A DNA stretch of 60,128 bases from Minisyncoccota bacterium (GTDB taxonomy: Bacteria > Patescibacteriota > Minisyncoccia > UBA6257 > GWB1-50-10): the NCBI GenBank assembly GCA_020059915.1, contig JAGVBB010000002.1, positions 1 to 60,128 of the forward strand. Reading direction: 5' to 3'. Below are positions 43,951 to 51,415 of this stretch, piece after piece; positions within the stretch are counted from its first letter, which is position 1, and each line of letters begins with the position of its first letter. Under the pieces are notes generated by a model. The model was not told the DNA's origin. It worked only from the letters and a program-made list of their open reading frames with translations, and did not search any database. The position numbers and the translations under genes are program-made.

Positions 43951-44077
43951 CCGTGGTGTGTGCACGTGCATACACCTATATCATACACCCCACAAAAACT
44001 CCCGATAGAAAGGAACAAGGCAAAAAAACAATGTCTAGAACATGCTTTTTTTGTTGTGGATAACTGGGGACTCGCAA

Positions 44078-44276
44078 AGGTTATGAGTTTTTAGAGCCCG
44101 CTCCATATATCGACAAGCCAGCTTGTCGATATAAAGGCCGCTTGGCCAAGTCTTAGTCTCCAAAAACTCACAACCTTTTCTCGCTGAGAGGTATGGGTTT
44201 AGAGATTTAGTCTCTGCACACAGAAGTATTTGTTCGTTTTAAAAAAAATATTTCAATCTTCAAAAACTTATAACCT
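44078..44276. repeat. Two tandem ~90-100-bp units with terminal inverted repeats
   Basis: aggttatgagtttttagag / ctccaaaaactcacaacct; second right end cttcaaaaacttataacct exactly 100 bp further. Confidence 0.65.
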
Positions 44277-44295
44277 TTCCTCATTGGAAGCAGAG

Positions 44296-44643
44296 ACTCC
44301 GACAAAAGTCGGAGTTTTTTTATGGGCGGCTATTTATTAGATTGGGAATTCTTTCAACTAACCACTCGCCGTCGCTCGTGGTTGTTTCAAGCCTGGGCTC
44401 GCTGTGCTCGTTACTACTCGCACAACGCTCCGCCCTTCAATTCCTAATCAGAGACAATAAATTGTCTCTGATTCTATCCGCCAAAAAACTCCGACAAAAG
44501 TCGGAGTTTCTTTTTGGGCGGCTAGAGGGAATTTTTCTCCCCCAACCTCATTATCATTCGGCTTCCTCCGAAACCTGCCGCACCCGCTCGGACCAATGGC
44601 GCGGGTGTCGGCTTCAATTTCTTTTTAATTGCCCAACTACGTT
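44296..44643 (-). repeat. Two tRNA-His 3'-end duplication units
   Basis: 19-bp copy at 44515-44533; degenerate copy at 44324-44350; identical 20-nt hairpins at 44296 and 44488. Confidence 0.85.
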
Positions 44644-44644
44644 G

Positions 44645-44716
44645 GGCGGCTAGAGGGAATTGAACCCTCGATTACGGGACCACAACCCGTCGTTTTACCA
44701 CTAAACTATAGCCGCC
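44645..44716 (-). tRNA. tRNA-His(GTG) with encoded G-1
   Basis: Cloverleaf GCGGCTA/TAGCCGC; anticodon stem ACGGG/CCCGT; GGTTCAATTCC. Confidence 0.95.
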
Positions 44717-44794
44717 ATCCAATACATATCAAAGCAGAAAATATGTTTTCTTTCAAGGATTTTATTTAATGTCCCAATTTTTGCATTTTATGTT

Positions 44795-49211: not shown

Positions 49212-49253
49212 AAAGTTCAGATGAAAAAACATTCCGCGATGCGGAATGTTTTT

Positions 49254-49531
49254 TTTGTCGGCACTTCGCACTGCTGTATTCAGCACCTCCTTCGCCTTCG
49301 CTTTTTGTCGGCACTTCGCACTGCTGTATTCAGCACCTCCTTCGCCTTCGCTCAGTCGGGATGCCGGGAATCGCCTCTCGCTCTACTGAGCTCGAAACCT
49401 ACGACCTCTCTTCGAGGTCTGCGGCCCGCGGTTCGATTCCATTTCAAAAAATAAAAAACGGGGCAAGAAGCTCCGTTTTTTATTTGTCGGTACTTCGCAC
49501 TGCTGTGCTCAGCACCTCCTTCGCCTTTGCT
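49254..49531. repeat. Three 49-bp direct repeats, a 22-bp tRNA-Pro 3'-end copy and the 74-nt element (copy B)
   Basis: Copies at 49254, 49304, 49483; 49352-49373 equals 49531-49552. Confidence 0.9.
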
Positions 49532-49534
49532 CAG

Positions 49535-49605
49535 TCGGGATGCCGGGAATCGAACCCGGCCTACCTGCTCCCAAAGCAGGCGTACTACCGATATACTACA
49601 TCCCG
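49535..49605 (-). tRNA. tRNA-Pro(TGG)
   Basis: CGGGATG/CATCCCG; CCTGC-TTTGGGA-GCAGG. Confidence 0.95.
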
Positions 49606-49668: not shown

Positions 49669-49740
49669 GCCCCCGTAGTTCAACGGATAGAATAGCTCCC
49701 TTCTAAGGAGTAGATTGAGGTTCGATTCCTCGCGGGGGTA
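49669..49740 (+). tRNA. tRNA-Arg(TCT)
   Basis: GCCCCCG/CGGGGGT; GCTCC-CTTCTAA-GGAGT; GGTTCGATTCC. Confidence 0.92.
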
Positions 49741-49789
49741 CTAAATATAAAACACTGTCCTTCGACGGTGTTTTATATTTTTTATTTTT

Positions 49790-49906
49790 GAGGAATTGAA
49801 CCTTTTGCCCCCGTGGAGGAAAGTATTGAAAACCGAGAGGTTTTCAAAGTTAGGGGGTCGGGGGCAAAAATTGTGTTTATGTGAGATTTCCTCGCGGGGG
49901 TACTAA
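49790..49906 (+). repeat. tRNA-Arg antisense-T-arm / spacer / 3'-end duplication unit
   Basis: gaggaattgaacc at 49790; 19-bp copy at 49888-49906 equals 49726-49744. Confidence 0.85.
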
Positions 49907-51137: not shown

Positions 51138-51208
51138 GCGGGTATCGTATAGCGGCATTACACCACCCTTCCAAGGTGGATACACGGGTTCGAGTCCCGT
51201 TACCCGCT
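51138..51208 (+). tRNA. tRNA-Gly(TCC)
   Basis: GCGGGTA/TACCCGC; CCACC-CTTCCAA-GGTGG. Confidence 0.95.
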
Positions 51209-51248
51209 CAGTAAGGCTCCGCTTGCGGAGTTTTTTAGTTGGTGGGTA

Positions 51249-51320
51249 AATCAAAAACAACTACTTGTTTTTGATTAGGGACTCGAGGGGCGGACCTACC
51301 TACCGGCAGGCAGGGCGATG
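51249..51320 (+). repeat. Partial tRNA-associated unit homologous to the His distal unit, with a palindrome insert
   Basis: aatcaaaaacaa/ttgtttttgatt hairpin, agggactcga, gggcgga, insert at 51295-51314. Confidence 0.75.
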
Positions 51321-51415
51321 TTTATACTCTTCCTGTAACAACCTATATAAAAGCATTTGTAAATAATCAGTTTTCTATGTTATTCTTGACAAAAAGGGCG
51401 TTACAGGGGTGTTAC

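Follow-up and report, generated by a model that had tools for sequence, protein, structure and literature searches.

Two structured modules stacked behind the tRNA-His gene of a Minisyncoccota bacterium

In a 60,128-nucleotide (nt) stretch of a Minisyncoccota genome, here called the window, the 3' end of the tRNA-His(GTG) gene recurs twice downstream of that gene. What are the units bounded by these copies, and in which order did they arrive? A first-pass annotation of the window had likened the locus to a clustered regularly interspaced short palindromic repeat (CRISPR) or integron array growing next to the tRNA. The window is C3:1-60128 of a host genome (G000) of 686 kb in 7 contigs, with 37% G+C and scored 100% complete; we compared the locus with its counterparts in related genomes and in metagenome contigs. 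The comparison shows that the tRNA-His locus is a stack of two independent insertions. The two units, E1 next to the tRNA and E2 beyond it, belong to two apparently undescribed families of structured modules that target tRNA ends. Both are shown to be protein-less and 100-150 nt long, with a predicted secondary structure conserved by compensatory change.

The target and anchor of the array is the intact tRNA-His gene at 44644-44715 (ARAGORN; Rfam tRNA, 71.4 bits), which lies on the minus strand, as do all features of the array given below unless stated otherwise. The duplicated segment, S0 (44642-44661), consists of the tRNA's final 18 nt, which start at A57 of the T-loop, plus two trailer nucleotides. 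This sequence (TTGGGCGGCTAGAGGGAATT) returns as an exact 20-nt direct repeat in S1 (44514-44533), which closes unit E1, and in decayed form in S2 (44322-44350). An insertion of about 11 nt splits S2, which otherwise has the same sequence as the tRNA end (AATTCCC[AATCTAATAAA]TAGCCGCCC in tRNA sense); the orthologue in G001, a genome of the same genus, has the same insertion. The three tRNA-end copies, one of them within the tRNA, are spaced by 128 and 192 nt, and the units of 128 and 192 bp are gene-free. The exact recurrence reported in the first-pass annotation at 44515-44533 and the degenerate one at 44324-44350 are thus both real, with the bounds given here.

Each copy is followed, as had also been reported, by an identical hairpin (ACTCCGACAAAAGTCGGAGT at 44488-44507 and 44296-44315), which scores terminator-like. 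The 37-nt segment at 44296-44332 holds this hairpin together with the first part of the tRNA-end copy and matches 44488-44524 at 95% identity. The proximal terminator-type hairpin, T1 (44483-44512), reads ACTCCGAC TTTT GTCGGAGT in tRNA sense and is flanked by A and T runs; its stem-loop is identical to that of T2 (44296-44315). The terminator is present twice because the direct repeat reaches into the linker and terminator, as it does at several loci. The sole open reading frame (ORF) in 44296-44643 is a mechanical 103-aa frame that spans both units on the opposite strand. A promoter-like match at 44705-44732 falls within tRNA-His and was dismissed as spurious.

The left junction of E1 (44631-44641) reads, in tRNA sense, CGTA and then GTTGGGC. 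The latter motif is antisense to the tRNA-His acceptor 3' strand and trailer, and with the tRNA end it is predicted to pair into a fold-back palindrome (GCCCAAC-GTA-GTTGGGC). The E1 core (44525-44622) is a type-2 module matching our model R2 with 97.7 bits; the antisense T-loop AATTGAA (44613-44619) stands at its start, and it ends in GGGGGAGAAA. Its nearest relative lies behind tRNA-Leu(CAA) of G001 (84% over 89 nt). Unit E2 (44331-44482) is a type-1 module matching model R1 with 148.8 bits. It contains an arm named A5 (GGCGGATAG, 44474-44482), which is antisense to the tRNA-His acceptor 3' strand, and the hairpin P1 (44446-44473), an inverted repeat that is helix 1 of the R1 family and has compensatory changes in all 9 pairs. 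The antisense T-loop of E2 is GGAATTGAAG (44435-44444), and its hairpin loops are AGUA and GAGCGACGGCGA. A5 co-varies with the tRNA, reading GGCGAATAG in G001 against tRNA-His GCGAC.../...GTCGC. The plus-strand motif ttcaatt, which had been noticed at 44613 and 44436 as T-loop text in the opposite orientation, is indeed the reverse complement of the tRNA-His T-loop (44613-44619 and 44436-44442). Folding z-scores are -3.9 for E1 and -7.0 for E2.

From the stronger decay of the distal copy, polarised and sequential addition next to the tRNA had been proposed. Unit number does vary among relatives at the tRNA-proximal end, with three occupancy states (empty, E2 only, and E1 plus E2) that provide direct evidence on insertion order. 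In G001, tRNA-His is followed by the terminator, the E2 orthologue, the same broken S2 and the terminator again, and E1 is absent. Two populations represented by Logan contigs (X2 and X8) have a single type-1 unit with an intact tRNA-end copy behind tRNA-His. A further Logan contig, X1, joins the distal flank and terminator T2 directly to tRNA-His (44321 to 44642), skipping 44322-44641, and represents an empty site; another (X4) is identical to tRNA-His and the proximal part of E1. From these states the order of events follows: an empty site first received a type-1 unit, and a type-2 unit later entered between that one and the tRNA. E2 is shown to be older, being common to the sister species and having a broken tRNA-end copy, and E1 younger, being absent in the sister species and having an exact one.

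A second case of tRNA-proximal addition is shown by tRNA-Leu(CAA). In G001 and in another genome of the genus, G002, this tRNA is followed by a linker, a type-2 module and a tRNA-end copy. In G000, the orthologous linker is set apart from the tRNA by a type-1 unit with an exact tRNA-end copy, whereas the distal tRNA-end copy is decayed. Arrays in G004 and G009 likewise have an exact proximal and a decayed distal copy.

The two spacers had been described as different in sequence, and they prove to be members of two different families. Homologues of E2 were found at five other G000 sites, each just 3' of a tRNA gene and on its strand (Val-TAC, Asp, Ile-GAT, Thr-CGT and Leu-CAA). Alignment of the six type-1 copies yielded a multi-branched fold with compensatory changes in 23 of 36 predicted pairs, and from these copies the covariance model R1 of a ~150-nt family was built. 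R1 recovered its six source copies plus a truncated one behind tRNA-Gly(TCC) (51240-51377). Matches, 1-10 copies each, were obtained in 13 of 41 related genomes, and 13 of 301 genomes sampled over the phylum were positive. Among 40 distinct R1 sequences, 93.4% of cells are paired (65.3% in shuffles), and the covariation score is 0.70, compared with 0.20 in shuffles and at most 0.11 in slid controls. The seed for R2, a ~100-nt family, consisted of five E1-type members from four genomes, with compensatory change in 14 of 24 pairs. R2 matched 14 of the 41 related genomes (1-11 copies each); across 30 distinct sequences, 96.4% of cells are paired versus 72.5% in shuffles, with covariation scores of 0.65 and 0.23, respectively. 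Helix 1 of R2, the closing helix formed by the antisense T-loop with the tRNA-end copy, co-varies with the T-loop of the host tRNA.

At permissive thresholds, Rfam returned only tRNAs and chance-level matches for the window region and for five better-preserved copies, and no description of E1- or E2-type elements was found in the literature searched or in Rfam. A pattern scan of genome contigs with CGCGAG...GAGCGACGGCGA was dominated by chance matches in GC-rich genomes and gave only about six records from the candidate phyla radiation (CPR). Overall, at least five core types can be distinguished among the units. Some type-1 cores contain an optional insert, the 20-nt mini-palindrome CCTGCCTRCCGGYAGGCAGG (G000 C3:136.9 kb, C1:12.5 kb and ~51300 in the window). 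The same mini-palindrome splits the tRNA-end copy behind G000 tRNA-Leu(GAG) and looks like a still smaller nested insertion.

Units adjoin the 3' ends of more than 20 tRNA species, and almost every copy lies directly 3' of the tRNA on the same strand. Their order in tRNA sense is constant: a variable linker, often a terminator; A5 and P1 in many type-1 copies; the antisense T-loop with the adjoining T-stem; the core; and, on the far side of every unit, S, the sense copy of the host tRNA's 3' end. Every unit opens with the reverse complement of its host tRNA's T-loop, and in the predicted fold of the strand S pairs completely with the antisense arm or arms. Among 30 units of G000 and G001, S starts at C56 in 10 and at R57 in 8, never 5' of C56, and it extends 0-4 nt past the tRNA end in 24; CCA is never carried. 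The antisense T-loop tracks unusual T-loops (TCCGATT in tRNA-Ile) even where S does not include those bases, which argues that it is templated by the tRNA gene and not only shaped by pairing with S.

Counting as a recognisable downstream S copy any stretch in the next 400 nt that agrees with the tRNA's own 3' end at 13 or more of 16 positions, we found one behind 11 of 47 tRNAs in G000 and 21 of 46 in a genome of the same genus, and the occupied sets differ. Chance cannot explain these copies, because it would yield about 0.0015 per tRNA. By eye, modules were also seen behind two tmRNA-like 3' ends and behind apparent intron-bearing tRNA-Phe genes (intron ~230-330 nt), both among the loci L020 (G013), L209 (G005), L212 (G020) and L214 (G027); these tRNA-Phe genes were not called by ARAGORN because of the apparent intron. 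If these identifications are true, the target range would be any tRNA-like 3' end.

Three other tRNA genes of the window illustrate the variety of occupants. The truncated type-1 module directly 3' of tRNA-Gly(TCC) (51138-51209) retains only A5, P1, the antisense T-loop and the core start; in G001, a complete type-2 module stands at the same tRNA instead. Units of other core types, each with the tRNA 3' end copied exactly, lie at 49355-49533 behind tRNA-Pro(TGG) (49534-49605, minus strand) and at 49742-49906 behind tRNA-Arg(TCT) (49669-49741, plus strand), the latter site being without a unit in G001. One copy of a sequence of about 47 nt, GAGCRAAGGCGAAGGAGGTGCTGA..CAGCAGTGCGAAGTRCCGAC (~49250-49533), lies between the unit and tRNA-Pro, and a tandem pair follows the unit's tRNA-end copy; the sequence is not present at the tRNA-Pro orthologue of G001.

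Cores appear behind different tRNAs with different arms. BLAST detected core pairs that are 93.5%, 96.2% and 96.6% identical, involving Leu-GAG/Thr-CGT, Ala-TGC/Ser-CGA and Arg-CCG/Gly-CCC. The common segment of such pairs is bounded by the inverted and the direct T-loop (ATTTGAAC ... GTTCAAAT), and the differences are ordinary transitions with no adenine-specific pattern. The X2 sample contains an E1 core with 98% identity (2 mismatches over 91 nt) that is set in another flank context, and host DNA around tRNA-His differs there by ~9-10%. Within conserved flanks, the core was replaced at Arg-GCG and at the second Leu-CAA unit. Tandem duplication of a unit was also detected, identical at tRNA-Met of G014 and partial in other loci. 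At several loci, the direct repeat includes the tRNA trailer/terminator or linker together with S (S-X repeats). At one and the same tRNA, congeneric species differ in occupancy and even in core type, and truncated or partial units are common. Several contigs of metagenome-assembled genomes begin or end inside modules (the starts of G002:C3 and G002:C6, and the end of G000 C1); modules thus break short-read assemblies at tRNA loci.

What, then, are the units? They are probably small non-autonomous mobile modules that integrate at the segment from T-loop to 3' end of tRNA genes, so that a new unit adjoins the intact tRNA and older ones are pushed outward. Our preferred mechanism, held with low certainty and suggested by the anatomy of the units, is integration of a folded strand by host enzymes. 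A single-stranded form would fold so that the antisense arm or arms, paired with S, recreate the target as a duplex; strand exchange with the tRNA gene near position 55/56 would then be carried out by recombination or repair enzymes of the host. The logic would be that of the attP hairpins of CTX-type elements and of integron attC sites. From this model one would expect the order that is seen (tRNA, linker, antisense copy, core, sense copy) as well as growth at the functional site. In G002, a palindrome consisting of antisense plus sense copy without a core was detected; together with the palindrome at the left junction of E1, it may hint at snap-back synthesis.

Several observations weigh against this reading. 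The folded-strand model does not account for how the arms become cognate to a new tRNA. Ectopic gene conversion among elements already in place, and not transposition, could be the source of the near-identical cores. The empty site is a single low-depth contig of 159 nt (X1) from a fairly distant relative, and no free, circular or single-stranded form of a unit was seen. No dedicated integrase was found: every genome, element-bearing or not, has a single tyrosine-recombinase match. In G000 this match lies 80 kb from the locus (C3:124479-124991) and is presumed to be of the Xer type. A Y1/HUH (IS200/RAYT) transposase was not found in G000, and among the 41 genomes this class is not associated with the elements (9 of 17 element-bearing versus 7 of 24 other genomes). 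Finally, both reverse transcriptase genes of G000 adjoin Avd genes, which mark diversity-generating retroelements.

These two cassettes, each with reverse transcriptase and Avd, lie at C2:138479-141885 and C2:147318-148722, and one of them adjoins a pilin-like protein of 493 aa, its inferred target. A dedicated reverse transcriptase for the modules was considered and rejected on the grounds of this association with Avd and of the missing adenine-specific pattern in core differences. A Pfam scan confined to the ten ORFs flanking the locus (39.4-47.7 kb) revealed no cas or integron-integrase family; the matches include a methyltransferase, a Nudix hydrolase, an aminotransferase and an SLT/LysM protein.

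A bolder form of the mobile-module reading would supply the retargeting. The units might form a new class of programmable, protein-less mobile elements, in which a folded core is guided to any tRNA-like 3' end by pairing of the antisense arm or arms, and every move re-templates the arms and S from the new target, perhaps through fold-back or template-switch synthesis, with host enzymes only. A single core family could in this way occupy more than 20 different tRNAs as well as tmRNA. We consider this rather unlikely.

The units might instead be structured small RNAs of the host, made from the tRNA transcription unit, with a tRNA-like paired 3' end that is needed for processing or stability or acts as a mimic of the cognate tRNA 3' end; they would have arisen, and been kept, by local duplication and gene conversion. 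Such RNA genes would fit the very strong structural covariation in R1 and R2, the constant position of the units on the tRNA strand, and one copy located between tRNA-Ile(GAT) and tRNA-Ala(TGC) with no terminator between the copy and tRNA-Ile. Two further observations favour RNA genes and also count against mobility. First, A5, the antisense T-loop and S follow species-specific changes of the tRNA at tRNA-His and tRNA-Asp. Second, wobble pairs lean slightly towards the tRNA-sense strand, with 46 G-U versus 27 A-C cells; this is the strand on which the alignment was fitted. Transitions in the antisense arms are wobble-compatible in 15 cases and incompatible in 16 overall (8 versus 3 in a well-aligned subset). 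However, host RNA genes are hard to reconcile with presence and core type that differ at the same tRNA within one genus, with the many truncated and partial units, with the near-identical cores behind different tRNAs, and with a patchy distribution (roughly a third of the related genomes, 4% of those sampled over the phylum). This explanation is therefore unlikely in our view.

Movement could also proceed via RNA. A transcript of the module would be reverse-transcribed, a template switch would lead onto the 3' end of a pre-tRNA, and the hybrid cDNA would recombine with the tRNA gene. This route resembles the Mauriceville retroplasmid of Neurospora, which integrates at mitochondrial tRNA genes. 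Reverse transcriptase genes are present in 11 of 17 element-bearing relatives and in 4 of 24 without elements, an association confounded by relatedness, and six element-bearing genomes have no reverse transcriptase match. The S-X repeats that include the tRNA trailer/terminator would be expected if a primary transcript were copied, and the structure reads best on the transcribed strand; S, on the other hand, never carries CCA, near-identical cores show transitions and no adenine-specific signature, and the G000 enzymes sit in cassettes with Avd, like those of diversity-generating retroelements. Taken together, an RNA route seems quite unlikely.

Integration by tyrosine integrases classically leaves a duplicated tRNA 3' part whose start lies in the T-loop. 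The repeats behind tRNA-His could accordingly be attL/attR scars of larger, integrase-carrying islands or prophages that once resided there and were later deleted, and decay that grows with distance from the tRNA would agree with this. We regard it as very improbable: a conserved, structured module of 100-150 nt lies between the repeats behind more than 20 tRNA species, an inverted T-loop copy, which att scars leave unexplained, comes with every unit, and neither G000 nor G001 has a phage-type integrase. An adaptive array of the CRISPR or integron kind, with tRNA-end copies as repeats and acquired units serving memory or cargo, shares the polarised growth at the tRNA-proximal end but is barely credible given only two unequally spaced units, 'spacers' that are both members of R1 and R2, no ORF cargo, no cas or IntI match among the ten ORFs scanned, and one tyrosine-recombinase match per genome.

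The analogy drawn in the first-pass annotation was therefore right about polarity and wrong about kind, since the spacers are two conserved, multi-copy structured families and the repeat is the tRNA's own 3' end. CRISPR arrays have many identical repeats of 23-50 nt, regular spacing, unique spacers and cas genes nearby, whereas the tRNA-His locus has three irregularly spaced copies, spacers from multi-copy families and no cas gene among the flanking ORFs. In integrons, IntI lies beside attI, and a cassette consists of a promoterless ORF plus attC; here, the single tyrosine-recombinase match is distant and also present in relatives without elements, and R1 and R2 account fully for the units. 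Like integron cassettes, new units enter at the attachment-site end, as E1, absent in G001, did relative to the common E2, and as seen at tRNA-Leu(CAA). The modules also resemble attC sites (57-141 nt) in being folded, imperfect palindromes of similar size whose structure is conserved more than their sequence, and the T-loop motif GTTCRA loosely resembles the integron core site GTTRRRY. Unlike in integrons, the attachment site is a tRNA, and the paired arms are target-specific with no fixed core site.

Closer parallels are found in integrative mobile elements exploiting Xer (IMEX), CTX-phi and TLC-phi among them, which use a folded single-stranded attP and the host's XerCD to insert at dif. 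Like them, the modules have no recombinase of their own, inverted and direct target copies pair into a duplex mimic in the folded strand (predicted folds in our case), one inverted copy stays inside after integration, and successive elements stack at one site with the newest adjoining the functional site. The differences are that the target is the T-loop-to-3'-end segment of tRNA or tmRNA genes and not dif, and that the modules, at only 100-190 bp, contain no genes and use the same core families on more than 20 targets with matching arms. With tRNA-integrating islands, prophages and tycheposon-type elements, they share the direct repeat of the tRNA 3' part from the T-loop (20 nt at tRNA-His; a start at C56 or R57 in 18 of 30 units), the intact tRNA and the tandem accumulation with decaying partial tRNA repeats. 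They are, however, about 100 times smaller, have no integrase in the element and no phage-type integrase in the genome, carry an extra inverted target copy, and use one core family on many tRNAs.

Small size, lack of coding capacity, multiple copies, richness in hairpins, patchy distribution and frequent location at contig ends are shared with MITEs (miniature transposable elements with inverted repeats), repetitive extragenic palindromic (REP) sequences and Rickettsia palindromic elements. In contrast to these small repeats, the modules are strictly site-specific for tRNA-like 3' ends, their arms are target copies that change with the tRNA and not fixed terminal repeats, about 20 nt are duplicated instead of 2-10 nt, and no transposase partner came to light (Y1/HUH is absent from G000). 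The modules thus lack the defining features of CRISPR arrays, integron cassettes, integrase-borne tRNA islands and classical MITE/REP elements. TIGR-Tas arrays, which occur in CPR bacteria, were also considered and rejected; their 36-nt box C/D-like units beside a Tas gene do not fit the modules.

CPR/Patescibacteria genomes are tiny and had been regarded as nearly devoid of transposable elements. In two congeneric genomes, between a quarter and almost half of the tRNA genes carry small structured inserts whose turnover is faster than that of the genes around them. The inserts add terminators and paired antisense segments beside essential tRNA genes and create false 'att sites' for island-finding programs. 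If the arms truly guide integration, the modules would represent a minimal, enzyme-borrowing, sequence-addressable insertion system for tRNA-like ends, which bears on how site-specific mobile elements are retargeted.

Minor observations concern the surroundings of the array and one hairpin of E1. Distal to the array, the noncoding segment 44070-44290 contains a further small repeat with inverted ends AAAGGTTATGAGTTTTTAGAG / CTCCAAAAACTCACAACCTTT (44076-44096 and 44158-44178), a third end copy at 44262-44278 and a perfect palindrome at 44106-44133. Related sequences occur at C3:71.45-71.54 kb in G000 and behind the tRNA-Ile(TAT) unit of G002. A second, divergent tRNA-His(GTG) of G000 (C2:35671-35743) has the unusual T-loop GGTGCAAGTCC and no module behind it. 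Scans with the 19-mer of the first E1 hairpin, CGCGCCATTGGTCCGAGCG (44575-44593), yielded an unrelated-looking alphaproteobacterial insert in place of further tRNA-linked copies. Exact occurrences of the 19-mer number at least 120 among metagenome stretches and at least 120 among stretches of genome records; most of the records listed are from Rhodobacterales and other Alphaproteobacteria. In most contexts examined, it forms the tip of a ~43-nt palindromic insert that has no Rfam match and interrupts many genes. Removal of this insert from one locus (L270) restores the reading frame of an IS5-like transposase.

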